Below, piece by piece: positions 2,477 through 61,449 of a DNA stretch of 62,907 nt. This DNA comes from a virus (lineage: Duplodnaviria; Caudoviricetes): the IMG/VR virus record IMGVR_UViG_3300048851_000073, positions 1-62,907 of that record; one strand, written 5' to 3'. The position numbers and the translations under genes are program-made. Numbering within the stretch: position 1 is the first letter of the stretch; every line of letters begins with the position of its first letter. Below the pieces are notes generated by a model. The model did no database searches. It was not told the DNA's origin and saw only the letters and a list, made by a program, of their open reading frames with translations.

Positions 2477-2788
2477 ATGGGTTTTCGCAGCGTAAGGGTA
2501 AGCGACATCAGCGGGATCGAGTTGAACGAAAGCGAAGCAGTGAACGTGGTGATCCGGGATCACCCGAAGAGCGAGCCTCGGCAGTTCGATGCATCGCAGG
2601 AGGAACTGAAAGCGCTCAAGACGGTCGGCAATCTGGTGTCCTTGGAATACCGGTTTGCCGATGGCACGAGTCAGGATGTGTTCGTCACTGCGACCGAATT
2701 CGCAAAGCTCGTTCCTGACGACAAGCTGTCCGGTTTCGACGCCGTTCGCGGTCGCCGGAAAGGGTTCCGACCCGGCGTTGCCGAGTAA
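2477..2788 (+). CDS. Hypothetical protein; N-terminus weakly reminiscent of an Lsr2 dimerisation domain
   Basis: MGFRSVRVSDISG start; stand-alone gene followed by hairpins. Confidence 0.55.
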   Translation: MGFRSVRVSDISGIELNESEAVNVVIRDHPKSEPRQFDASQEELKALKTVGNLVSLEYRFADGTSQDVFVTATEFAKLVPDDKLSGFDAVRGRRKGFRPGVAE

Positions 2789-2886
2789 CCCACAGACAAC
2801 CACCTGTCCCAACTACCCAGTCCCGTTTCACCTTGAGGCCAAAAGCTTCGGTGAAACGGGACTGTTTCAAATTCCAGACATGAAAT

Positions 2887-2920
2887 GCCCCGCTACCTTT
2901 CGGTAGCGGGGTTTGTATTT
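2887..2920. terminator. Bidirectional terminator hairpin
   Basis: CCCCGCTACC-TTTC-GGTAGCGGGG between convergent genes; second hairpin at 2818-2864. Confidence 0.7.
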
Positions 2921-3417
2921 CACGAAGCGGACACAACCTTGACGCTTTCCACCAAAGCCCAGCGTTCCGCCAGACCCACTCCATCGTTGTACGCCTGGAG
3001 CCAGTTGTCGTAACGTCGAGCATTGCCGTGCCAACCATCTTCGTTGATGGTCTTCACCATGTAGCGGTACTCCGTGGTGTTGAAGAGTAGATCAATCAGC
3101 TCGTCGGGGCACCCCAAGGTCTCGCCCTCTTGATCCGGTTGGCCGGCGAGCACGCAGTCACCCGCGATGAAGTCCATGCCTCTGTAGCGGTCGTTGTGGG
3201 TCCACAAGATCAGTGTCGCCTTGCGATTGAGTGGCAGACCAAGAATCTTACTTTCGTCATGTACAAATAGCGTGGCCGATGGTCGGTCCAGGTTGATGCA
3301 GTCGAACGGTCCGCCGACGTGTGTTTGGTACGCCCGGTAGTCGCCTTGCTCGATCTCGATCAACTCGATGTCGCGCTCTTCATCAGCGGGGATGAGAACG
3401 CATTTGATGGTGGTCAT
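2920..3417 (-). CDS. DUF3846-like protein
   Basis: YQTHVGGPFDCI, LFVHDESKILGLPLNRKAT, DFIAGDCVLAG; start moved to MTTIKC. Confidence 0.7.
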   Translation of the reverse strand: MTTIKCVLIPADEERDIELIEIEQGDYRAYQTHVGGPFDCINLDRPSATLFVHDESKILGLPLNRKATLILWTHNDRYRGMDFIAGDCVLAGQPDQEGETLGCPDELIDLLFNTTEYRYMVKTINEDGWHGNARRYDNWLQAYNDGVGLAERWALVESVKVVSAS

Positions 3418-3482
3418 GATGTGTCCTGTTCGTGAGATGTGCTCCACCCAGCGGGATTGCTGGACGGAGTGCTCCTCGCGAT

Positions 3483-3905
3483 CTAGAACTCGATGCGGTG
3501 GTTCACAGTCCCCGTCATGTACTCGTCGATCAGGTCCTTGCAACTCGAGTACCCGATACCGAACGCCGCGTAGTACCCCGCCGTGTTGAGACGCTTGATC
3601 CACTCGGCCTGGTCTCGGATGTGATCGTCGGCAACCAGTGAACCGTCGCGCTTTCGGATGTGCGTCCCGTCTACCTTGACCTCGATGTACAGACCCATGT
3701 AGTCCCCGAAGTCGGGGTGAGACTTCGCTGCTACGAACAGATCTGGGTATCCCGCGTCTCCGTTGAGCCCCTTATACAGCCCGCGTGAGTACCGGCTGGT
3801 GTTGTTGATTCCCGACAGATCAAAGTGGAATGGAGTCGAACGGTAGAACTGGCGCAGGTGCTGTGCGATGAGCCGGTAGATGTCGTTCTCGGCGTTACTG
3901 CGCAT
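3483..3905 (-). CDS. VRR-NUC (PD-(D/E)xK) nuclease
   Basis: AGYPDLFV...GLYIEVK...DQAEWIKRLNTAGY. Confidence 0.8.
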   Translation of the reverse strand: MRSNAENDIYRLIAQHLRQFYRSTPFHFDLSGINNTSRYSRGLYKGLNGDAGYPDLFVAAKSHPDFGDYMGLYIEVKVDGTHIRKRDGSLVADDHIRDQAEWIKRLNTAGYYAAFGIGYSSCKDLIDEYMTGTVNHRIEF

Positions 3906-4338
3906 CCGCCGATTCCTGTTTCCGGATCTCTTTGAGACTGCGTGAGATCGCCTTCGTCTTCGCAACGATGGTCCCTCGCACCTTGTCGGTAAGACCAGGC
4001 ATCTGCAGCCCAGCTACGTAGGCTGTCACTTCATCCAGGACGCCGTCGATCTCGTCAGTCGGCTTGTACCCCTCGATCCAGATGAACTCGTTTTCGTTGA
4101 AGATCTCCTTGACGTGCACAGCCTGGAACTCGCGGAGGTTCTTGAAGATCGCGATGCTCGACGTATCCGTCTGCCACTGGATGACTACCTTGCCGTCGGG
4201 AAACACGACCCCTTCGATGACCTTGCCGGTACCGCTGAGGTTCTTCCCATCTCTGTGGCGCACCATCATGAAAAGCCGAGACTTGCGTGTCGTTCGTACC
4301 GTTGGTTGCTTCTGTCTCACCTCCGCACCTCCAACCAA
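3895..4338 (-). CDS. Conserved phage hypothetical protein (SGTG-x-V-x-EGVVFPDG motif)
   Basis: Motif recognisable from phage proteins; start uncertain. Confidence 0.6.
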   Translation of the reverse strand: MVGGAEVRQKQPTVRTTRKSRLFMMVRHRDGKNLSGTGKVIEGVVFPDGKVVIQWQTDTSSIAIFKNLREFQAVHVKEIFNENEFIWIEGYKPTDEIDGVLDEVTAYVAGLQMPGLTDKVRGTIVAKTKAISRSLKEIRKQESADAQ

Positions 4339-4541
4339 CCTTCCGGCAGCTCAAGGCGTTTCTTGCGACTCTTCGGTTCCTCCCCATCCACGACTAGCTG
4401 GTTGGTCAGCTCATAGATGATCCCTAGCGAGTGCATGACGCCGCGTGCAAGGTAAGCGCGCAGGTCACGTTGTTGGTCGGGGTCAAGCTCGCCAACAACG
4501 TCTTCGATGGTGAGGAGGGGTGGTTGGTCGGGGGAGATCAT
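4317..4541 (-). CDS. Hypothetical protein
   Basis: Member of overlapping leftward gene chain. Confidence 0.55.
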   Translation of the reverse strand: MISPDQPPLLTIEDVVGELDPDQQRDLRAYLARGVMHSLGIIYELTNQLVVDGEEPKSRKKRLELPEGWLEVRR

Positions 4542-4753
4542 GAAGAGGCTTCCTCTTCTAGGATCGCCTCGATCAATCGTGCATCTTGCGCTCGGCTGTA
4601 GAGTTTGTAGTAGGTGGTCTCGCTGATCTCTCTCACCTGATCGACGGGCAGATCGCGTTCTGCAGCAATATCCTCAAGACGCCTATTAAGTCTGATGTCT
4701 TCCTTTATGACTGCGAAGACAATCGGAGAGATTCGCTGTTCGCTTGTCGTCAT
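4538..4753 (-). CDS. Hypothetical protein, possible HTH
   Basis: LEDIAAERDLPVDQVREI; 4-bp overlaps with neighbours. Confidence 0.5.
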   Translation of the reverse strand: MTTSEQRISPIVFAVIKEDIRLNRRLEDIAAERDLPVDQVREISETTYYKLYSRAQDARLIEAILEEEASS

Positions 4754-4977
4754 AACTGGTACTCCTCGACAACGACGGGTGCTGTCTCGGAAACAAAGTG
4801 TTCGTGAACAAGTTCGACAGCCTTTCGGTGCGCACCCCACAGGGTGTAACTCCACCCGAGAGACCCCTGATCCTTCGCCCTGTCCCAGTAGACGGTGATT
4901 CGATACCTGAAACCGTGGTTGTGTTTGCGGGAAATCCTTTCAATCACAACCTCGAATTTGCGCTGCGGATCGCTCAT
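4750..4977 (-). CDS. Hypothetical protein
   Basis: ATGA overlaps at both ends. Confidence 0.6.
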   Translation of the reverse strand: MSDPQRKFEVVIERISRKHNHGFRYRITVYWDRAKDQGSLGWSYTLWGAHRKAVELVHEHFVSETAPVVVEEYQL

Positions 4978-5165
4978 CCCTCTACCCCCATGATCGACGG
5001 GTAGGCCAGCGCCACCTTCGCCAACGCATCCTCGCGGCTCATCACGCCGTCGTCCACCTGTTTCATGGTGCGCTCGAACAAGACGTACGTCGCGAGACGT
5101 TTGATGCCTTCGACTCGGTGCTCACTCAGGTACTCGGATTGCTCAAATGGTGCTGCTTCGTTCAT
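4974..5165 (-). CDS. Hypothetical protein
   Basis: SD AGGA before MNEAAP; overlaps next gene. Confidence 0.55.
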   Translation of the reverse strand: MNEAAPFEQSEYLSEHRVEGIKRLATYVLFERTMKQVDDGVMSREDALAKVALAYPSIMGVEG

Positions 5166-5226
5166 GACATGTTTCCTGTTTAGGTTGTTACTGCGATACC
5201 TGGAAGATCCGTTGACCGGAATCAAG

Positions 5227-5915
5227 CCTCAAGCCGCGAAAGCTTGAGAAAATGGATCAACGGATCGTCGAGGTAGAGGACTCAATCAAGCGGGAGGGCT
5301 CCCAGATCAAGTCCCCAGTCACAAGGGCGAGGTGTACGGACACTTAAGATCCCTCTGCATCGTCCTCGTGACTGGTGTGGCATCGGCTAGCACTGTCGAC
5401 AGCCCGGCCCTGGATCAGAACCGATATGCGAGTTGTTACCTCGCCCGCTTCCGATGTGGTCCACACCGGGGGTTGAACATACAAGGCAGCTATCGTACTG
5501 CGATGTTCAGATATCGTCCTTCGATCCTATTAATCGGTTCTGAAACGCCGCAACGGTTCCTTTATGCCTTCCGTCGTGTGCCAGACGTCAAAACTGGTTG
5601 CCACTTGTATGCCCAGTTCTATCCAGGTAAGGGTGGATCACCTGGATAGAACTGGAGGATTAAGCGTATGGTGCTAGTAGGAACTCAGCCGATTATCTCG
5701 TTGTCGCAGTCAGACGATCTATTTTTAACCTGAAACCCAGGGCGACTCAGGTGCATTTGCTAGGCCATGTTGTTACTACCAGCACTACTACGCTTAATGC
5801 CTGATTTTCAATGTACCGTCCGACAGCCCTCGCAGTGCTGTCGGACGTGGGTGCCACAGTTGCCGTGAGTGGTGGTTCACACGGCCTTACCGTTCTAGAC
5901 GGAGTTTTACGGGCA
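5227..5915 (-). ncRNA. Candidate large structured ncRNA or ncRNA cluster (strand assumed from flanking genes)
   Basis: ~700 nt without a credible ORF in an otherwise gapless operon; many long stems and a possible kissing/pseudoknot pairing. Confidence 0.55.
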
Positions 5916-5916
5916 A

Positions 5917-6006
5917 CTAGCGGCGTCTTTTCAATGTGAATCGAATGATCGGAGTTGCTACGAAGATCACCAGGACCGTGAGGATGAACCGGAGTCCATC
6001 ACGCAT
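5917..6006 (-). CDS. 29-aa hydrophobic peptide MRDGLRFILTVLVIFVATPIIRFTLKRRR
   Basis: Hand-translated; overlaps end of 5999-6262 ORF; one TM segment plus basic tail. Confidence 0.45.
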   Translation of the reverse strand: MRDGLRFILTVLVIFVATPIIRFTLKRRR

Positions 6007-6262
6007 GGCTCTTGCCAAGCTTTCGCTCTAGGAATGCTCGACTTCTGATGTGCGCGTTGGCTTTTGCTTCGGCCCGTTCATCCTTAGCTGCGAGCTGCTG
6101 CCGCTTCGCTCGGCGGTGTAGGCCGATCATCTTCCGGAACGCGATCGAGGTGTGTTTCTCGAACTGCATTGTAAATATCTCAGGTGCTCTTTCGCCGGCA
6201 GCCTTAGCCTTCTCGGCGGCTTCTCTTTCGAGTTGCTGTGTTGTTTTGATTAGTGTGTTCAT
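5999..6262 (-). CDS. Hypothetical basic protein
   Basis: SD GGAGGGG; first gene after promoter at 6282-6310. Confidence 0.65.
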   Translation of the reverse strand: MNTLIKTTQQLEREAAEKAKAAGERAPEIFTMQFEKHTSIAFRKMIGLHRRAKRQQLAAKDERAEAKANAHIRSRAFLERKLGKSHA

Positions 6263-6281
6263 GTTTCCCCTCCTGCAAAAG

Positions 6282-6310
6282 ACTATGAGCCATTTAGTCT
6301 TTTATTGCAA
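6282..6310 (-). promoter_or_regulatory. Promoter P1: TTGCAA-17-CATAGT with AAATGGCT spacer motif
   Basis: One of five related promoters; DnaA-box-like 9-mers at 6319-6327 and 6341-6349. Confidence 0.7.
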
Positions 6311-6350
6311 GAGCAATCTTTTCCACATGTGCACAACTTTGGTGGATAAC

Positions 6351-7202
6351 TCAGTCGGATTTCTTCTTCTCATGAAAGGCAACAACTCCGTACATGCCGC
6401 CGACAAGTGTCGCATAAGCCAGGATATATCCAAGCACGACTGGGAAGAACGAGGCAGCAAGAAGTATTCCGGCACTAGTAGCAAAGATTGTGACGCCCTT
6501 GCCAAGCTGGCGGTCAGTAAGCTGGGGATAGCGTGACCTCAACTTTGCGACGATGGAAGCCGTGTGTGCGTCCAAATCAGTGTCCAAGTCGGGGAGTTCA
6601 TCGACCGCGTCTTCGTCGTCGTCGGTGATCTCCGCGAACACGGCGTCCAGGGCCTCGTAGTCCGCGTCAGTAATCTCGGTATCCAGGTCTTCGAGTACGT
6701 GCTCGACGCTCGGGGTCAGCACCTCGTCGCGGAAAGCCTGAACCACCTCCGGCGTGGTCTGTTGCTGGATTTCCTCGATCGTTTCTGACATATCGGCCGG
6801 CTCGTCCTCGCTGTCAGATGTTGGCGGCTTGAGACGACTGCCGTACTTGGTGTTCATGTCGTCGATGAATTGCTTAACCAGCGGAGACTCCGTGGCTGGC
6901 CGGGAGAATCGGGACACGTCAACAGGCTGATAGTGCAGCAGGAAGCCGGACATGTCGATCTTGTTTGCTTGGTTCTGTACCGCGGCCTGCAGACCGCTCC
7001 CATCTACCTTGTAGGTGCGCGTCAGGCTGTCTCGGGTGGGGCCGAGCAGCATCTGGGCGATGCTCTTCTGCAGATCTTCGCTTGTCTTCTGCATGTTGAG
7101 CGAGATCTTCGGTGGCTTGGACAGATTTCCGTATGCACCTCGATTGACCTCCCTCGTGAGGCGGTTAGCGAAGTCCTGATCGGCAGAGTAGTCACGTGGC
7201 AT
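6351..7202 (-). CDS. Acidic protein with two C-terminal TM helices
   Basis: D/E-rich centre, hydrophobic C-terminus. Confidence 0.65.
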   Translation of the reverse strand: MPRDYSADQDFANRLTREVNRGAYGNLSKPPKISLNMQKTSEDLQKSIAQMLLGPTRDSLTRTYKVDGSGLQAAVQNQANKIDMSGFLLHYQPVDVSRFSRPATESPLVKQFIDDMNTKYGSRLKPPTSDSEDEPADMSETIEEIQQQTTPEVVQAFRDEVLTPSVEHVLEDLDTEITDADYEALDAVFAEITDDDEDAVDELPDLDTDLDAHTASIVAKLRSRYPQLTDRQLGKGVTIFATSAGILLAASFFPVVLGYILAYATLVGGMYGVVAFHEKKKSD

Positions 7203-7525
7203 GGGGTAGCTCCTTCCGAAGCTGTAGAAGAGAAAGTTTACTGAGAACGGCGACGCTACCCATCTGATGACACGTGAATGCGTCAGATTGGCGGAGGGTG
7301 CGACGAGGGGAATTTCCCTCTATGTACTACTTTGGGGCACGTTTTACAGGTCCGCAAGGTTATTCGGACAACCTGCTGACCAGGCATTTCACCACATCAT
7401 CCGGGCAAGCACGTGCAGACAAAGAACGAACAGCCCTACGGCGCACATCGCGAGAACAGCGAGACCGACCACCAGGACCGCGACGATGGCAAATAGGTCG
7501 CGCAACGCGAGTAGAACGGTGCGAC

Positions 7526-7777
7526 TCATGACTGCACCTCGCCTCGGTACACGTACTCGAACAGACCTCCCTGCACCTGAACAGTAAGAATGTCGTGCCC
7601 TTCAGCTCGCAACTCAGCGAGACGGGCACTGTAGCGAAAGCAGATCTTGTTCAGTTCGCGGTTCGTGACTGTCCCTTCGGTCTTGAGCTTGCTGAGGATT
7701 CGCGCCGTCTTGGAAGACGGGTCATGCTTCGGCTTCTGGTCGGGGAGTACTGGGTGGATGGTGGTGGGGAGGGTCAT
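7526..7777 (-). CDS. Winged HTH protein
   Basis: VTNRELNKICFRYSARLAELRAEGHDI. Confidence 0.7.
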   Translation of the reverse strand: MTLPTTIHPVLPDQKPKHDPSSKTARILSKLKTEGTVTNRELNKICFRYSARLAELRAEGHDILTVQVQGGLFEYVYRGEVQS

Positions 7778-7995
7778 GACTCAGCCCTCCGCTCCTGCTC
7801 CCGGCGCAGCATCAGGTCGCCTTCGACTAGGAGCATCGTCATCCGGCCGAGCTTTGCGCGGGTCTCCGCTAGTTGGTCGTCCGACAGGTGCTCTGGGTCG
7901 GGGAGCAGTTGAAAGGTCCGGGTAAGCATGGTCTCGGCGGAGGAGAGGGTGTTTTCGAAGGGCGGGGTGGGGACGAAGTCAGGTCGCTCGGTCAT
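7774..7995 (-). CDS. Hypothetical protein
   Basis: 4-bp overlaps with both neighbours. Confidence 0.55.
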   Translation of the reverse strand: MTERPDFVPTPPFENTLSSAETMLTRTFQLLPDPEHLSDDQLAETRAKLGRMTMLLVEGDLMLRREQERRAES

Positions 7996-9092
7996 CCGAC
8001 CTTCTCCTGGAGCTTCACCTTCTCCCCTGTAGTAGTGGGTGTCCCTTCAGCGGGAGCATCTTCATACTCCAATAACGCTGTCAGCTCTTGCTTCAGTGCT
8101 TCCTTGAGCACCGCGAACGTGATCTCAGGAGACTGTCGAAATGCGGCGATCCTTGCGGCACGCAGGACGGTGTTCTTAACGTATCCACCAGTGATCTCGT
8201 AAGAGGCCAGCAGATCCCAGTCGATGTCGACAGCTAGCGGCGCCTTTGTGGGGAACATGCGCTTCCAGATCTCTTTGCGCAACTCCTGTGAAGGCATCTC
8301 AAAACGGATCTTCACCGCGATTCGCCGATCAAGCGCTTTGTCCAGGTTCGTTGAGTGGTTGGTGGTAAAGACGGTGACGCCCTTGTGGTTTTCCAACTTG
8401 TTCAATAGGACGTTGACCTGGGACACCTCCCACGATGCACGTGCGTTCTCACGACTGCCGAGCAAGGAGTCGCACTCGTCGAACAGGATCACTGCGTCGG
8501 AATGCTTGTCGAACATCTCGGCGATCTTCTTCTCGGTCTCACCGACGTACTTGTCCATGACCTCGGCAGCGGTGATGGTGATGAGGTCTTTACCTAGGTA
8601 GTCAGCGATCGCCTGTGCCATCAGTGTCTTGCCTGTGCCAGGAAGGCCGTGGAAGAGCAGGGATACGCCGGTGCCCTTCTCGATGGTGTCTTCGAAGCCC
8701 CAAGTCTTGAAGATGAGATCGCTGTTCTCGACGAGGGACAATGCCTCGACGATCATCTGCTTCTTGTACGACTCGATGATGACGGTGTCGAACAGGCTCT
8801 TGTCAGGGGAACGGAAATACTTGCCACGTGGATACTCGTCGTTGACTACGAAGTCGAAGCCAGCCACCTTAGGCGGCTTGGTCTTCTTGTCTCTACCGTA
8901 GTCACAGTCGGAGCAGTAGAAGCGATCGCCATCTACCTCTTCACCGCACTTGGGGCACTTGGTCAGACCTTCAACCCAAGAATACTTCTGGTCGTCAGAG
9001 CGACCAACTGATATGGAGCCGGTGTCGCCGAGCGTGAATGTGTACTCGCGCATGGCCTCTCGCAGATAATCACTGGAATCAAAACTTGCCAT
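7992..9092 (-). CDS. AAA+ ATPase (SpoVK/Cdc48-like) with N-terminal Zn ribbon
   Basis: GLPGTGKT, ILFDECD, TTNH..LDKALDRR; CPKC/CSDC. Confidence 0.9.
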   Translation of the reverse strand: MASFDSSDYLREAMREYTFTLGDTGSISVGRSDDQKYSWVEGLTKCPKCGEEVDGDRFYCSDCDYGRDKKTKPPKVAGFDFVVNDEYPRGKYFRSPDKSLFDTVIIESYKKQMIVEALSLVENSDLIFKTWGFEDTIEKGTGVSLLFHGLPGTGKTLMAQAIADYLGKDLITITAAEVMDKYVGETEKKIAEMFDKHSDAVILFDECDSLLGSRENARASWEVSQVNVLLNKLENHKGVTVFTTNHSTNLDKALDRRIAVKIRFEMPSQELRKEIWKRMFPTKAPLAVDIDWDLLASYEITGGYVKNTVLRAARIAAFRQSPEITFAVLKEALKQELTALLEYEDAPAEGTPTTTGEKVKLQEKVG

Positions 9093-9346
9093 CAGTCTAG
9101 GTCCCCTAAGTCGAGCTTCCGTGCTATGCGCCCGGCACCGCGTGACAGTTTCGATGCACTGTCTGCCATAGAACCCATGGCTTCAACTTCATGAGTCTTG
9201 ATGATGAGGAGCGTGAGGGAATCGGCAAGCTTGCTAGCACTGTCTGTGTCATCCTCTCTTAGTTTCTGATCAACGGCGTCTGCCAGGCTGTCCATAAGTC
9301 GAACAGTGACTTCGGCGCGCTTGTCGATCGTGGTTTCGCTAATCAT
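9092..9346 (-). CDS. Hypothetical protein
   Basis: Coupled to the AAA gene. Confidence 0.55.
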   Translation of the reverse strand: MISETTIDKRAEVTVRLMDSLADAVDQKLREDDTDSASKLADSLTLLIIKTHEVEAMGSMADSASKLSRGAGRIARKLDLGDLD

Positions 9347-9452
9347 ATGTAGTTTTCCTTGCGACCTACGTCGCGTTAATTTGTCAATGCTATGTTCGTT
9401 GTAGAAACCGCTACTGTTGAAAACGCGTGATGGTCGCGGTTTTAGTACATAT

Positions 9453-10106
9453 CTACTTATTGGTGGTTTCTTTGTAGCGACGCCAAAGGATTTCTTTGTC
9501 CAGTTCTTGCCGCTTCATGTACCTACGCAAGGTTTCGATGTTCACGTCAAGCAGACGGGCGATCGCGGCTTTGGACACATCGTTCATGCGATACTGGATA
9601 ATTTCCTCGTCCTTGCCATGGAGTTTCAGCTTTTCAGGACTCGTCGATCCGAGCGGCCTGCCTAGCACGACGCCCTCGGCCTTCTTACGTGCTAACGCTT
9701 CACGGGTACGCGCTGAGATGAGGTTGCGCTCAATCTCTGCCGACAGTCCGAAGGCGAACGCCAGGACCTTGGAGTTGATGTCGTCCTGGAAGACGATGTT
9801 CTCCTTAACTGCGATGATGGTGATCCCGCGGTCGATGAGCTGCTGGATCGTGTTGAGAACGTCAAGCAAGCGACGACTGATGCGGCTCGTCTCGCTGACT
9901 ATGAGGGTGTCGCCAGCCTCCAGGCTATCGAGCACCTCACTGAACTTGCGCTCGGTGATCGTGCTCTTGTAGCCAGAGATGGTTTCGCCGACGATCTCTG
10001 CAATCTCAAGGTGCTCTCGTTCAGCATAGAGGCGGATGCCGCTCAGTTGGTTGTCCGTCTCCTGCTTGATCGTGCTGACACGAATGTAGGCAACGATCCG
10101 GCCCAC
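9453..10106 (-). CDS. Serine recombinase (resolvase/invertase)
   Basis: AYIRVSTIKQ, SRISR, AEIERNLISART, LGRP, C-terminal HTH. Confidence 0.93.
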   Translation of the reverse strand: MGRIVAYIRVSTIKQETDNQLSGIRLYAEREHLEIAEIVGETISGYKSTITERKFSEVLDSLEAGDTLIVSETSRISRRLLDVLNTIQQLIDRGITIIAVKENIVFQDDINSKVLAFAFGLSAEIERNLISARTREALARKKAEGVVLGRPLGSTSPEKLKLHGKDEEIIQYRMNDVSKAAIARLLDVNIETLRRYMKRQELDKEILWRRYKETTNK

Positions 10107-16004: not shown

Positions 16005-16703
16005 ATGCAGTTACTAACAAAGGTACTCGTCGGGTCTAGGCTTCACGGGCTTGAGAACGAACAGTCGGATTACGACTACCGAGGCATCCACATGCACGAT
16101 CTGCAGGATGTGTTGAGTCCATTCAAGACGCTCAAGAAAACCACATGGATCGAAGGCGACGAAGATAACACTAGCTACGAGCTAGCCGACTTCTGCAGGA
16201 GTGCGGTTCATGGTAACGCCACGATCCTTGAAGTCTTCTTTAGTGACCAGGTCATTGCCACGTCACCGGTAGCTGATGAGATGCGCGCTAACTGGCGGAA
16301 GTTTATCGACACCGACAAGGTGGTCATGGCGAGCCGGGGCTACGCAGGTAACCAACTCAACAAGATGCAGCTGTTCGATGACATCGGAGTTAAGGACCAA
16401 CGTCGGACGAGCAAGTTTGCCATCTCGTACTGTCGAGTTCTGTGGCAATGCTCTGAGTTTCTACGTACTGGAGAGTTCCCATGCCGGATCGCTGATCTCG
16501 ATCTCAGACAGTTTCTACTGAAGCTGAAGGCCGGATGGGACGACAAGTACATCCCAGAGTGCACCGAAAGGTTCGCCGCCCTCCAGGCCGACGTGACGAG
16601 TGAATGGAAAACGGCGGACAAAATCAAACCAGACATCGCATGGATCGAGGAGTTTATTTACAAAAGTTATACAGGAGTTCCAATGAATGAAAGTCGCTTA
16701 TAG
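16005..16703 (+). CDS. Pol-beta superfamily nucleotidyltransferase (RlaP/YcgL-like)
   Basis: VGSRLHGL..SDYDYRGI (GS..DxD), GNATILEVFFS. Confidence 0.85.
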   Translation: MQLLTKVLVGSRLHGLENEQSDYDYRGIHMHDLQDVLSPFKTLKKTTWIEGDEDNTSYELADFCRSAVHGNATILEVFFSDQVIATSPVADEMRANWRKFIDTDKVVMASRGYAGNQLNKMQLFDDIGVKDQRRTSKFAISYCRVLWQCSEFLRTGEFPCRIADLDLRQFLLKLKAGWDDKYIPECTERFAALQADVTSEWKTADKIKPDIAWIEEFIYKSYTGVPMNESRL

Positions 16704-17736
16704 CACCACACCACAGAAGAGCAAGCTCGATGAGTACGTCAAGATGGGTCTTCTACGGAGCCAGACCAACGACTCTGGCACGCTCACCATCTACGTCTAT
16801 ACAGAACTGACTCAATTCGATCGTCTCTGGAACAGTGTCACCCGACAGTCAAGGGGACTGGTTCTCGACAACAACAGCCGGTGTGTTATTCGCTGTCTTC
16901 CTAAGTTCTTCAACGACAATGAGCCAGAGGCTCTACTTGAGAAGCCGCGGGACATCGATCCCACCACCTTGGTTGTCCAGGACAAGGTCGACGGTTCTCT
17001 GATCCAGGTCGCCAACGATCCAGAGCACGGGCTGGTCGTCACTTCCAAGGGTAGCTTCAACAGTGACCAGGCGAAATGGGCTAGGCAGATCTGCAAAGAG
17101 CAGTATCCAGTCAGTGCCGGATACTTTGACGCGGGCCTGACCTACATCTTTGAGGTGATCCACCCAGACAACCGGATCGTCATCGACTACGGCGATCGAC
17201 GCGAGTTGATCTTGCTGGCAGTTGTCGAGAACGAGACCGGCAAAGAGCGTGACATCTACACCAGCCGGTACATCGCCTTTGATCGTGTCCCTCTACTCGA
17301 TCCATCAACCCTTGATGACGTCGAGGCACTCAACGACAGCGGGCTCAGCGAGGGAGTTGTCGCTAACTTCGATGGCTACAGGGTCAAGATCAAGACGAGC
17401 GAGTACCTACGCCTGCACCGCATCGTGACAGACTTCACGCCTAAACGTGTTTGGGAGGCTCTTAGCAATGGCGACAGCCTCGACTTCGAGAATATGCCTG
17501 AAGAGTTCCAGACATGGCTAGACAAAGTCTCTGAGGAACTGAAGGCAGAGTTTAGACGACTCGAAACTGAGATCCAGTGCGAGTCCAACGAGGCTTCCGG
17601 TTTGTCAGATAAGGAACTCGGACTCAGCCAAGACTTCAAGTACAAGGGGTACATTTTCCAGCTGCGCAACGGCAAGGACATCGCCCCAACCATCTGGAAA
17701 GCAATCAAACCAAAGAAGGAGGTGATACATGCCTAA
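16687..17736 (+). CDS. T4 Rnl1-like RNA ligase
   Basis: RGLVLD, PKFFN, KVDGSL (motif I), YIFE, PDNRIV, EGVV, VKIKTSEY. Confidence 0.92.
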   Translation: MKVAYSTTPQKSKLDEYVKMGLLRSQTNDSGTLTIYVYTELTQFDRLWNSVTRQSRGLVLDNNSRCVIRCLPKFFNDNEPEALLEKPRDIDPTTLVVQDKVDGSLIQVANDPEHGLVVTSKGSFNSDQAKWARQICKEQYPVSAGYFDAGLTYIFEVIHPDNRIVIDYGDRRELILLAVVENETGKERDIYTSRYIAFDRVPLLDPSTLDDVEALNDSGLSEGVVANFDGYRVKIKTSEYLRLHRIVTDFTPKRVWEALSNGDSLDFENMPEEFQTWLDKVSEELKAEFRRLETEIQCESNEASGLSDKELGLSQDFKYKGYIFQLRNGKDIAPTIWKAIKPKKEVIHA

Positions 17737-18577
17737 GCTACTCATGCTCAAAGGATTACCCGGTAGCGGGAAGAGCACCTACGCTCGTCAACTGGTCGAG
17801 AAGAACCAGTACACCCGCGTCAACAAAGACGATCTACGAGCCATGCTGCACAACAGCACCCACTCTAAGGCCAAGGAAGCGGTTGTGTTGGGTGTCCGGG
17901 ACTACGTGGTCCACGATGCGCTCAGCTCGGGACGCAATGTCGTCGTGGACGACACGAACTTTGCCCCTGCACACGAACTACGGCTACGAGAGATCGCCAA
18001 GGAACACGGTGCCCAGTTCGAGTACAAGCTGATCGATACTCCACTGGACGTTTGCATTGCCCAGGATCTGAAGCGTCCCAACAGTGTGGGACAGAAGGTG
18101 ATCTTGCAGATGTACAACCAGTACTTGAAGCCGGCACCCGTTGAGGAACCCAAGATCGATCCTGCTCTGCCGACTGCAGTCATCTGCGACATCGACGGAA
18201 CTCTTGCTCACATGGTCAACCGAGGGCCGTACGATACCTCAAAGTACCTGGACGATGAGAAAGACGACACGATCCACCTTGTATTTGCCCGGCTGTCGGA
18301 AGGCGCGACAAGGATCATCTGCTCCGGCCGATCCGCCGAGTTCAAGGCGGACACCGCTCGGTGGCTGTATAACCATGGAATTACGTATGACCTGCTACTG
18401 ATGCGTCCAGCGGGTGACACTCGCAAAGACAGCATCATCAAACGCGAACTATACGAAGACCACATCAAGGGTAAGTACAACATCCGCGTTGTCCTAGACG
18501 ATCGCAACCAGGTAGTAGACATGTGGCGCAACGAACTAGGTCTTAAGGTCCTACAGGTAGCAGAGGGTGACTTTTAA
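17729..18577 (+). CDS. pseT: Polynucleotide 5'-kinase/3'-phosphatase (T4 PseT-like)
   Basis: GLPGSGKST P-loop, DDLR, DIDGTL HAD motif, SGR, DDR. Confidence 0.93.
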   Translation: MPKLLMLKGLPGSGKSTYARQLVEKNQYTRVNKDDLRAMLHNSTHSKAKEAVVLGVRDYVVHDALSSGRNVVVDDTNFAPAHELRLREIAKEHGAQFEYKLIDTPLDVCIAQDLKRPNSVGQKVILQMYNQYLKPAPVEEPKIDPALPTAVICDIDGTLAHMVNRGPYDTSKYLDDEKDDTIHLVFARLSEGATRIICSGRSAEFKADTARWLYNHGITYDLLLMRPAGDTRKDSIIKRELYEDHIKGKYNIRVVLDDRNQVVDMWRNELGLKVLQVAEGDF

Positions 18578-57152: not shown

Positions 57153-57521
57153 ATGGCTGAGCGCCGCACAATTACGGTTGAGTACGTGGACGATCTCGAC
57201 GGCTCGGTCGTTGACGAAGCGGACGTCAGCACGGTCGCATTCAGCTACAAGGGCACGTCTTACGAAATAGATCTGAAGCCGGCCAACGCCAAGAAGCTCG
57301 ACGATGCGTTGAACAAGTATATTGCTGCTGCACGGAAGACTTCGAATGGCCGACGCGGTCGGGCAGCAAGCACTGCGACCCGCCCGTCCACTGGATCGGG
57401 ACGCAGCAAGGAAGAGCTGGCAGCGATACGTAGTTGGGCGATCGACGAGGGCTACGAGATCTCCCCGCGCGGCAGAATCAAAGCCGAGATTATTGAGGCG
57501 TACGACGCTGCGAGCAAGTAG
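57153..57521 (+). CDS. lsr2: Lsr2 nucleoid-associated protein
   Basis: VDDLDG, YEIDL, IRSWA..G..ISPRGRI. Confidence 0.95.
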   Translation: MAERRTITVEYVDDLDGSVVDEADVSTVAFSYKGTSYEIDLKPANAKKLDDALNKYIAAARKTSNGRRGRAASTATRPSTGSGRSKEELAAIRSWAIDEGYEISPRGRIKAEIIEAYDAASK

Positions 57522-57775: not shown

Positions 57776-57818
57776 CAGCTAAGCCGGACACCTACACAAA
57801 AGGTGTCCGGCTTAGCTG
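57776..57818. terminator. 18-bp perfect hairpin between convergent units
   Basis: CAGCTAAGCCGGACACCT-N7-AGGTGTCCGGCTTAGCTG. Confidence 0.75.
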
Positions 57819-61313: not shown

Positions 61314-61449
61314 GGTCCATCCTTTGGGTGGGTTGTGGTGTCGGTTGCACGAACTCGGACGCCAATCTTGTTCCGTGCAACCTGGTTCTGAGACAGCAGC
61401 GGCCCTGGATATGTCTGGTATCCAGGGCCGCTGTCCCTCGCAGGCTGAA

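Follow-up and report, generated by a model that had tools for sequence, protein, structure and literature searches.

We analyzed a 62,907-nucleotide (nt) stretch of phage DNA (hereafter the window), which is the complete IMG/VR virus record IMGVR_UViG_3300048851_000073, and focused on a gap between its minus-strand genes at positions 5166 to 5998. This gap is structured above chance, carries no coding signal, and is conserved as a mosaic, module by module; its functional strand is the minus strand. The data support a row of approximately eight independently folding, stem-closed RNA modules rather than one large RNA. We refer to this row as the array and to its modules, from the high-coordinate end, as A to H. 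Module C is closed by a nearly constant stem, here called the bracket, which belongs to an unannotated family that is widespread in uncultured phages, where it surrounds unrelated inserts, and the outer helix of this bracket covaries. Our reading of the whole, to which we assign about an even chance, is that of an array of bracketed modules within a minus-strand early operon that would be subject to RNase III-type processing. Module C consists of the following three parts.

5776-5798, minus strand: 5' arm of module C, with outer helix 5789-5798, loop GUA 5786-5788, and inner helix 5776-5785; it carries the constant word GTAGTAGTGCTGGTAGTA.
5681-5775, minus strand: insert of module C, 95 nt with two or three hairpins, unique to this phage.
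5659-5680, minus strand: 3' arm of module C, with inner helix 5671-5680, loop CA 5669-5670, and outer helix 5659-5668; it carries the constant word ACTAGCACCATAC.

Read in the RNA sense, which is the minus strand of the window, the bracket is composed of 7 variable base pairs (bp), the segment GUA/UAC, an internal loop of GUA opposite CA, and the inner helix. The core of this inner helix is formed by GUGCUGGUAG(UAA), which pairs with (UUG)CUACUAGCAC; in a longer spelling, GUGCUGGUAGUAA(G) pairs with (C)UUGCUACUAGCAC. The outer helix has 10 bp, and the inner helix has 10 bp in the window and 13 to 14 bp in most other copies. The whole stretch is contained in two soil DNA metagenome runs, X1 and X2, from which it may originate. 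Alignment of X1 contigs to positions 4900 to 6400 at 80% likeness yielded, besides a source-like contig, three short contigs that each share single modules with the window. One X1 contig keeps positions 5639-5680 and 5772-5798 but differs between the arms, where 75 different letters replace the 91 of the window, so that the closing stem of module C is kept and its interior is replaced.

A two-arm pattern derived from module C retrieved 3 IMG/VR and 11 metagenome contigs, among which three sets were duplicates, and the similarity of these 14 loci to the window, as judged by blastn, was confined to the arms. The 18-mer of the 5' arm was found at 56 IMG/VR loci. Thirty of these have the 3' arm within 400 nt, and the other 26 correspond to a conserved coding stretch of another phage group or to low-complexity repeats. 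The final collection contains 43 rows that represent 37 distinct copies from viral and metagenome contigs, with inserts of 35 to 278 nt. The window belongs to it with both arm words on the same strand, 0 mismatches, and an insert of 95 nt. Only one pair of similar inserts was detected by blastn among the 37 copies, and the insert of the window was unlike the other 36. In two cases, a small open reading frame (ORF) with a good ribosome-binding site lies inside the bracket; it has 64 amino acids (aa) in L096:7665-7932 and 60 aa in L101:7379-7655 (minus strand). An Rfam scan of 35 bracket-bearing loci returned tRNAs only, and tRNA genes were found near the bracket in 2 of these loci (L053 and L101). 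The bracket pattern was not found in 401 sampled Actinomycetota genomes, and no description of the arm sequences or of comparable closing-stem phage RNA cassettes was found in the literature searched, outside subscription journals.

Several lines of evidence indicate that the bracket is an RNA structure. (i) When the outer 7 positions were compared by position, without alignment fitting, 254 of 259 cells were paired, whereas 2000 shuffles gave 192 on average and 216 at most. At position 8, pairing breaks off (14 of 37 copies), and the window itself is paired at 7 of 7 positions. (ii) In alignment A4, made with MAFFT from the 22 copies with inserts of up to 101 nt, 96.8% of the cells are paired and compensatory change is seen at 8 pairs. 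Both sides have changed in 43 cells, compared with 12.1 ± 3.8 in shuffles (0 of 500 as high), and pairing falls to 20 to 58% (maximum, 57.5%) when the partner is slid by 1 to 3 columns. (iii) The inner helix contains two near-invariant G.U pairs (in 21 and 17 of the 22 rows), the remaining pairs being G-C or U-A with one mismatch, and the outer helix has 10 G.U against 2 A.C wobbles. These wobble pairs imply that the RNA sense is that of one strand only, namely, the minus strand of the window. (iv) The covariance model R1 was built from the 22 rows of A4, including the window sequence, so that its match in the window reflects membership by construction; it finds a single bracket there, at 5657-5800, with 84.4 bits on the minus strand (E value [E] of 1.4e-19) against 44.4 bits on the plus strand. 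In every locus, the sense strand scores approximately twice the antisense strand. (v) In 34 of the 37 copies, most of the coding in the surrounding 6 kb is on the sense strand. The check for covarying homologs that had been proposed in a first-pass annotation of the gap, made from the sequence alone, thus came out positive, in that the module C bracket recurs in 37 distinct copies and its outer helix covaries.

Model R1 also detected diverged copies that lack the exact word, some of them in tandem, at L091:3002-3131, L085:126-226, L064:4301-4411, L078:2924-3055, and L089:2333-2474, and others in complete genomes. Several of them retain the loop and the AGUAA/UUGCU end while the helix is altered by compensation, as in L085:126-226. 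A further family of constant stems (CAGGGTGACTATACGAG ... CTCGTCAAATCCCTG), whose variable interior measures 21 to 44 nt, was noticed near the bracket in 4 distinct loci, namely, L043:10728-10790, L044 (minus strand), L089:2240-2320, and L054:1017-1070.

The first-pass annotation had described positions 5227 to 5915 as an ORF-free, densely base-paired region, and our data agree with this description. All the stems that it named are present: 5613-28/5640-55 is complementary at 16 of 16 positions and extends to 19 bp when folded; 5415-25/5533-43 is complementary at 11 of 11; 5315-30/5360-75 (16 nt) and 5817-30/5834-47 (14 nt) are 88% and 93% complementary, respectively; 5659-68/5789-98 pairs at 10 of 10 and extends beyond a small internal loop to 5680/5776; and 5197-5215/5257-75 (19 nt, 89%) encloses the hairpin 5228-48. 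Folding of the entire region against shuffled sequences gave a z score (z) of -3.63 for the plus and -5.44 for the minus strand, with 0 of 20 shuffles as good on either strand. Perfect complementary word pairs are far more frequent than in shuffles (17 versus 0.88 for 9-mers, 8 versus 0.06 for 11-mers, and 3 versus 0 for 14-mers), and none of 300 shuffles reached the observed count for any of these word lengths. Furthermore, of the 14 long inverted repeats in the whole window, 3 fall within this region. In a scan of positions 2500 to 10000 with 150-nt sliding windows, four of the nine that start between 5200 and 5800 had a minus-strand z below -3 and a fifth reached -2.99; among the remaining 91, 8 were below -3 on either strand, and coding DNA was mostly near z = 0. 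As to coding capacity, the candidate ORFs of the gap have a flat GC content of about 0.5 at each of the codon positions 1, 2, and 3, in contrast to the high-low-high pattern of 19 real genes. The sole ORF of at least 100 aa (5332-5649, plus strand, 105 aa) has no relative but itself and no PHROG match.

The seven modules other than module C are listed here.

5850-5917, minus strand: module A, with two small hairpins; prophage L064 has kept 39 nt of it (5879-5917).
5817-5847, minus strand: module B, a hairpin with a 14-bp stem (z of -4.71; 0 of 200 shuffles as good).
5612-5656, minus strand: module D, a 19-bp hairpin with a 7-nt loop (z of -7.43), belonging to a small family with an invariant apex.
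5415-5543, minus strand: module E, an 11-bp closing stem around four hairpins (z of -4.24).
5315-5375, minus strand: module F, a 12-bp closing stem with a small inner hairpin (z of -3.55).
5278-5314, minus strand: module G, a hairpin stable on the minus strand only (-18.6 kcal/mol; z of -4.42).
5197-5275, minus strand: module H, a long interrupted stem (5197-5215/5257-5275) with the hairpin 5228-5248 (z of -7.11); after about 30 nt, the ribosome-binding site of the next gene follows.

When each module was folded singly on the minus strand, seven of the eight gave z values from -3.55 to -7.43, and no shuffle out of 200 folded equally well. All eight modules have a lower z on the minus than on the plus strand, although the margin is just 0.2 to 0.6 in modules A, F, and H. 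The clearest strand difference among the eight is that of module G, which on the plus strand folds with -11.9 kcal/mol and a z of -1.23. The first-pass annotation had left open whether the region is one large noncoding RNA or a cluster. The cluster is the part of this proposal that stands, given the noncoding composition, the structure, the position downstream of the promoter-like motif P1 (see below), and the recurrence of modules C and D and of a 39-nt piece of module A in other phage contigs, with covariation. A single RNA of the GOLLD or ROOL type does not agree with the absence of Rfam matches, the independence of the domains in the minimum-energy fold, and the conservation module by module, in which adjacent modules and the module C insert are exchanged between relatives. 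The proposed kissing loop or pseudoknot fared less well: the 9-nt complement GGGCGAGGT (5325-33)/ACCTCGCCC (5438-46) is present, but at chance level (0.88 per shuffle) and with no comparative support.

Like the first-pass annotation, we could not assign the region to a known family. At the gathering score, the covariance models of Rfam 15 match only tRNA-Val across the window, and the same search of positions 4900 to 6400 at E up to 10 gave a single irrelevant match (E of 9.9). ARAGORN called no tRNA or transfer-messenger RNA (tmRNA) in the array, and no direct repeats of the iteron or CRISPR kind were found in it. Comparison of 5100-6100 and 5655-5802 with GenBank phages by blastn gave no match, and the array region as DNA gave only chance-level short matches in 401 Micrococcaceae genomes. 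One such match was considered as a possible antisense site to the host gene glf: in 14 of the 401 genomes, all but one of the 23 bases of 5315 to 5337 agree with the sense strand of the UDP-galactopyranose mutase gene (15 matches in total, two of them in genome G248), and an RNA from the minus strand would be antisense to it. With an E of about 0.008 per genome, this is at chance level, and the candidate was rejected. Four terminator-like sites were called in 4500-6800 against 2.4 expected by chance; two weak ones lie inside the array on the minus strand (5271-5257 and 5501-5486), and none is at the end of a closing stem.

Module D is likewise a portable element, a hairpin with an invariant loop. 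The apex of its family reads CCAGG, UGAU, 0 to 2 extra bases, CCACCCUUA, and CCUGG, and it was found on different, complementary lower stems in L043, L109, and L110. In the window, L043, and L109, a bracket or bracket-like cassette precedes the hairpin on its upstream side, and in L110 the hairpin is followed by a U run. An X1 contig of 382 nt contains the hairpin 5613-5656 exactly, with one extra loop base and unrelated flanks. A two-arm pattern for hairpin D had no match in genome contigs, and its 16-mer gave 24 chance matches in IMG/VR, mostly in two unrelated gene families and none with the second arm. We also considered pairing of the C-rich loop of D with ribosome-binding sites and rejected it, since the window has three occurrences of AAGGGTGG where 1.4 are expected, hairpin D itself being among them. 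Separately, a hairpin in L064:3800-3900 (minus strand) that precedes the homolog of the 63-aa gene described below has a loop with CCCACCC, resembling the invariant D loop. The sole relative of module E is an X1 contig of 157 nt that covers 5373-5467 with 12 other letters and 7 gaps (about 80% identity), and no relatives were found for module F.

The array lies in the left arm of the phage, where the genes between about 2.4 and 13 kb run leftward and are mostly abutting or overlapping. Its immediate neighborhood contains the following features.

6282-6310, minus strand: promoter-like motif P1 (TTGCAA, 17 nt, CATAGT), directed leftward into the array and located upstream of gene 5999-6262.
5999-6262, minus strand: 87-aa gene of unknown function, directly upstream of the array, with coding-type GC by codon position.
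5917-6018, minus strand: doubtful ORF of 33 aa, hydrophobic, which starts with TTG and overlaps the end of the 87-aa gene; its GC by codon position is ambiguous.
4974-5165, minus strand: 63-aa gene downstream of the array, with its start at the ATG at 5165 after AGGAAA and not at the upstream TTG.

The gap of 5166-5998 in the minus-strand genes is thus bounded by the 87-aa and the 63-aa gene, and the array is located downstream of the P1 motif on the transcribed strand, in an arm of abutting and overlapping genes, as the first-pass annotation had observed. The sequence AAATGGCTCATAST occurs in 5 copies in the window, against 0.03 expected, and the copy at 6282-6295 on the minus strand faces the array; a generic sigma-70 scan of 4500-6800 called no promoter. 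Neither of the flanking small proteins has a relative in the IMG/VR or metagenome contigs searched. Relatives of the 87-aa protein are P0001 (93%) and P0002 (69%), both on tiny contigs, and no Pfam or PHROG family matches it. The 33-aa ORF has no Pfam match, and no similar ORF is listed in the matching stretch of L064. A type I toxin-antitoxin system based on this ORF was rejected: the ORF was not seen in L064, and the 11-nt complement 5236-46/6016-26 is at chance level by our own estimate.

The record carries a tRNA-Val gene (581-655) with a tyrosine integrase gene (PF00589, 675-1925) alongside. An AhpC/TSA gene, a member of a common cellular gene family, precedes tRNA-Val, and an Lsr2 gene is located at 57153-57521. 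Lsr2 is typical of actinobacteria, and its presence therefore points to an actinobacterial host. The nearest relative located by way of the AAA ATPase (78% identity) is a provirus of Arthrobacter sp. Hiyo8, and comparison of the terminase indicated no known close phage. Several other structured sites were seen in the record. The strongest local structure of the left arm is at 2725-3024, where z in 150-nt windows reaches -9.9 (plus strand) and -6.5 (minus strand); it includes a perfect 15-bp inverted repeat (2818-2832/2850-2864) at the junction of ORFs 2447-2812 and 2685-3038. Values of z below -3.5 were also obtained in 4375-4600, which spans the overlap of genes 4317-4541 and 4538-4855, in 9325-9474, and in 9850-10074. 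Perfect hairpins of 18 and 15 bp are found at 57776-57818 and 61397-61433, respectively, near the right end of the record.

Prophage L064 (GC content, 0.53) is related to this phage and shows partial synteny at this locus. Its resolvase is 74% identical and its DUF3846 protein 37% identical to those of the window, and it contains 1.1 kb without a credible gene, followed by a homolog of the 63-aa gene (BLASTP E of 5e-8, 36% identity over 39 aa) and bordered upstream by a sequence that weakly matches the 87-aa gene (hhalign E of 3.9e-4, probability of 35%). A 139-aa ORF in this gene-free stretch has no Pfam family. The L064 array is a chain of stems that includes a piece of module A and one canonical and one diverged bracket. 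The piece of module A, 5879-5917 of the window, is 95% identical over 39 nt to L064:4826-4864, and in both phages it is located approximately 80 to 90 nt upstream of the bracket. Since the homolog of the 63-aa gene follows the L064 array, the position relative to the downstream gene is conserved, and the content is largely exchanged. Directly upstream of the L064 array, at L064:5166-6861 (minus strand), are genes for a TIR-domain protein (295 aa) and a weakly matching ArdA-like protein (257 aa), a neighborhood that hints at defense or antidefense.

We propose the following mechanism. The array would be the noncoding middle of a leftward early operon of a temperate actinobacterial phage and would be read on the minus strand from P1. 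The bracket, an interrupted helix of approximately 24 bp, may be cut by a double-strand-specific host RNase of the RNase III type; cutting would release the enclosed RNA from the polycistronic early transcript or insulate it, and the array could in this way yield several small, stable phage RNAs. Cleavage of the bracket by such an enzyme, taken by itself, we consider the likeliest mechanism, at somewhat less than an even chance. In its shape, a helix of about 24 bp with a small asymmetric loop around an RNA, the bracket resembles RNase III processing stems. In the window, the flanks form 10 bp, a 3x2 loop, and 10 bp, which corresponds to the helix of about 20 bp or more from the flanks that characterizes such stems. 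According to the available excerpts of two studies (PMC1935012 and PMC4838370), the RNase III sites of T7 and SP82 carry internal loops.

A universal reader of the bracket encoded by the phages themselves was sought but not supported. In 14 complete carrier phages, with GC contents of 0.34 to 0.55, no protein family was present in more than 7 genomes (BLASTP at 1e-6, ORFs of at least 70 aa, a test that small or fast-evolving proteins would escape). Because the carriers share no widespread protein family, a host factor is the simplest reader of the bracket. The exonuclease of L045, a low-GC carrier, was compared to learn about the host and had matches of only 50%, to proteobacterial phages, from which no conclusion on the host was drawn. 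The window also contains an RNA-repair operon (16005-18577), confirmed by Pfam and consisting of an RlaP nucleotidyltransferase, a T4 Rnl1-type RNA ligase, and a PNKP kinase-phosphatase. A link of the bracket to this operon was rejected, as 28 bracket-bearing records yielded a single, weak match to the ligase family and 18 control records likewise yielded one, so that no association was seen.

A number of observations weigh against the reading of the gap as a processed array of bracketed RNAs. (i) Folding of module A is not significant (z of -0.21), and the relatives of modules E to H are limited to one 157-nt contig, which leaves folding energy as their support. (ii) The Hiyo8 provirus lacks the entire array region and has contiguous genes in its place. 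(iii) The sequencing-run listing for the stretch includes no RNA run that contains it. (iv) L112:956-3181 (record G802) is a region of 2.2 kb without an ORF of at least 70 aa between plus-strand genes, and its two diverged brackets (46.9 and 25.3 bits) are on the minus strand, opposite to the flanking genes. (v) The second constant stem family is co-oriented with the bracket in 3 loci and inverted in L054. (vi) The family was gathered by an exact 18-mer, and the conservation of its core is thus partly an ascertainment effect. (vii) RNase III generally requires little sequence, and a near-invariant core of 31 nt across GC contents of 0.34 to 0.55 exceeds such needs; a sequence-specific protein or RNA partner could be involved instead. 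On the last point, the RNase III of Bacillus is described as having narrow specificity in the excerpt of PMC4838370, and an enzyme of this kind could fit the strict conservation of the core.

A sequence-specific partner is the essence of the alternative in which the bracket serves as a handle for protein binding. In this view, a host or phage protein that is itself conserved would read the GUA/CA loop together with the invariant inner helix, with the insert being presented or tethered, in the way that the stem of Y RNAs binds Ro60. Near-invariance of the 31-nt core in 37 copies from phages that share few genes is less typical of RNase III substrates than of sequence-specific binding sites. The second copies of L064 and L085, which have diverged in helix sequence, preserve the GUA/CA loop and the apical AGUAA/UUGCU. 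However, the hallmarks of the known system are missing: the Y RNA motif GNCGAAN0-1G (as given in the excerpt of PMC4201824) does not occur in the bracket stem, of which the 5' arm was read; the TROVE/Ro60 domain PF05731 had 0 matches in the window, whereas the control search matched it in 2 of the 14 genomes; no Rfam Y RNA or YrlA match was obtained in the window or the 35 loci; and, with no family in more than 7 of the 14 carriers, a phage-encoded partner is not apparent. We rate a protein handle as unlikely.

The 3' strand of the bracket raises the question of whether the inner helix, starting from G(5783), imitates the acceptor end of a precursor tRNA, so that RNase P and 3' trimming would produce a tRNA-like end. 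By the rules for RNase P substrates, the features are suggestive: the helix from G(5783) runs for 12 bp in most copies with ACCA on the 3' strand and a U at position -1, the 3' arm reads ...CUAGC-ACCA-UAC in 33 of 37 copies, and A139 is retained in the second L085 copy despite the change of its partner to C. In addition, the inserts of L051 and L079 end in a T-loop-like GGTTCGA(C/T)TCC beside the 3' arm. In L053, a tRNA-like 3' half with a perfect T arm, acceptor strand, and ACCA (L053:4199-4274), which neither ARAGORN nor Rfam calls, ends 10 nt upstream of the bracket, and a tRNA-Met gene is located 380 nt upstream on the same strand. On the other hand, ACCA is partly base-paired in the bracket (its A and first C), ACCA is missing from the most diverged copy (L078:2924-3055), the inner helix of the window has only 10 bp, the loose T-loop motif occurs in 3 of the 37 inserts, and neither ARAGORN nor Rfam calls a tRNA for any bracket. 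A tRNA-end mimic appears distinctly unlikely.

The bracket might also act at the level of DNA, with its arms either as the inverted repeats at the ends of a small mobile cassette or as a constant element that has inserted into palindromic targets, and with RNA structure as a by-product. The constant ends enclose unrelated interiors, two of which are small genes that have ribosome-binding sites of their own (L096 and L101); the bracket is present in unrelated phages, and a neighboring stem family is once inverted, all of which agrees with such an element. The ends of transposons are usually their most conserved part, yet the outermost 7 bp of the bracket are variable and covary. Inspection of the 12-nt flanks of the 37 copies revealed no direct target duplications, and no transposase recurs among the neighboring genes. 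The wobble is one-sided (10 G.U versus 2 A.C, plus the two near-invariant G.U pairs), the orientation follows the coding strand in 34 of 37 copies, and the inserts are unrelated except for one pair. Taken together, these data make a DNA element quite improbable.

Nonfunctional mosaic filler, that is, the remains of recombination joints with terminator-like or accidental hairpins, would account for the absence of the region from the Hiyo8 relative and for the near absence of relatives of modules E to H. It would not account for the covariation and strict conservation of module C, for the invariant loop of module D on covarying stems, or for the 39 nt of module A that are 95% conserved next to flanking proteins that are at most 36% identical, and the terminator-like sites (4 versus 2.4 expected) coincide with no end of a closing stem; we thus regard filler as highly improbable. 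Finally, only a very slim chance is left for an RNA-primed replication origin similar to the transcribed noncoding regions of about 0.5 to 0.7 kb in non-RepA cluster A mycobacteriophage prophages: such origins are available to actinobacteriophages, but those described in the excerpt of PMC7157519 lie beside parABS in integrase-less prophages, whereas the window has a tyrosine integrase by tRNA-Val (parABS was not searched for), a module-wise mosaic, and a bracket shared across GC contents of 0.34 to 0.55 at varied genome positions.

Comparison with known systems helps to place the array read as bracketed, processed RNAs. RNase III stems such as those of the rRNA leader-trailer, the Bacillus subtilis small cytoplasmic RNA (scRNA), T7 R1.1, and SP82 early mRNA have in common with the bracket a helix of at least two turns from the flanks, a small internal loop, and a polycistronic transcript (excerpts of PMC1935012 and PMC4838370). 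Known RNase III sites are specific to one gene or operon, whereas the bracket is approximately constant over 31 nt and is reused by dozens of unrelated phages; only its outer 7 bp are free to covary, and the likeness is one of predicted shape. The Y RNAs YrlA and YrlB are also modular small RNAs, in which a long closing stem acts as the handle for a protein and the body is variable and at times resembles a tRNA, and they are known from actinobacteria and mycobacteriophages, according to the excerpt of PMC4201824. The bracket differs from them in lacking GNCGAAN0-1G, a TROVE gene in the window, and an Rfam match. GOLLD and ROOL are likewise large, gene-free, structured stretches of phages, but each has one conserved architecture, whereas the array is a chain of independent, separately exchangeable domains without an Rfam match. 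The RNA origins of cluster A phages share with the array a transcribed noncoding region of several hundred bases in a temperate actinobacteriophage; they are related to each other as whole regions, with 41 to 71% identity in the excerpt of PMC7157519, in contrast to the mosaic seen here in a phage that integrates at a tRNA gene. RNAs bracketed by processing stems are thus already known, whereas the constant bracket family and the hairpin D family have no match in Rfam, GenBank phages, or the literature searched.

These data have a number of implications for phage biology. (i) A gene-free gap of a prophage is a row of folded RNA units and not filler, which is of relevance as small phage RNAs are barely cataloged, and the bracket of one of these units is common, nearly letter for letter, to dozens of uncultured phages that share almost no genes. 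(ii) The constant bracket provides a search handle for harvesting phage RNA inserts and might be used to express defined small RNAs in bacteria and release them. (iii) More tentatively, the constant, portable RNA bracket may be a plug-in slot into which any small RNA or gene can be inserted to be expressed within the early operon and passed to a universal host RNA enzyme, and the rows would then represent exchangeable arsenals of small RNAs. If this is the case, they would reveal an undescribed layer of phage gene organization that follows the logic of integron cassettes at the level of RNA. (iv) Given the ArdA-like and TIR genes beside the L064 array, the enclosed RNAs could be decoys or guides against host defenses; if the inserts act on host defenses or on RNA metabolism, the arrays would constitute a new class of accessory phage loci.

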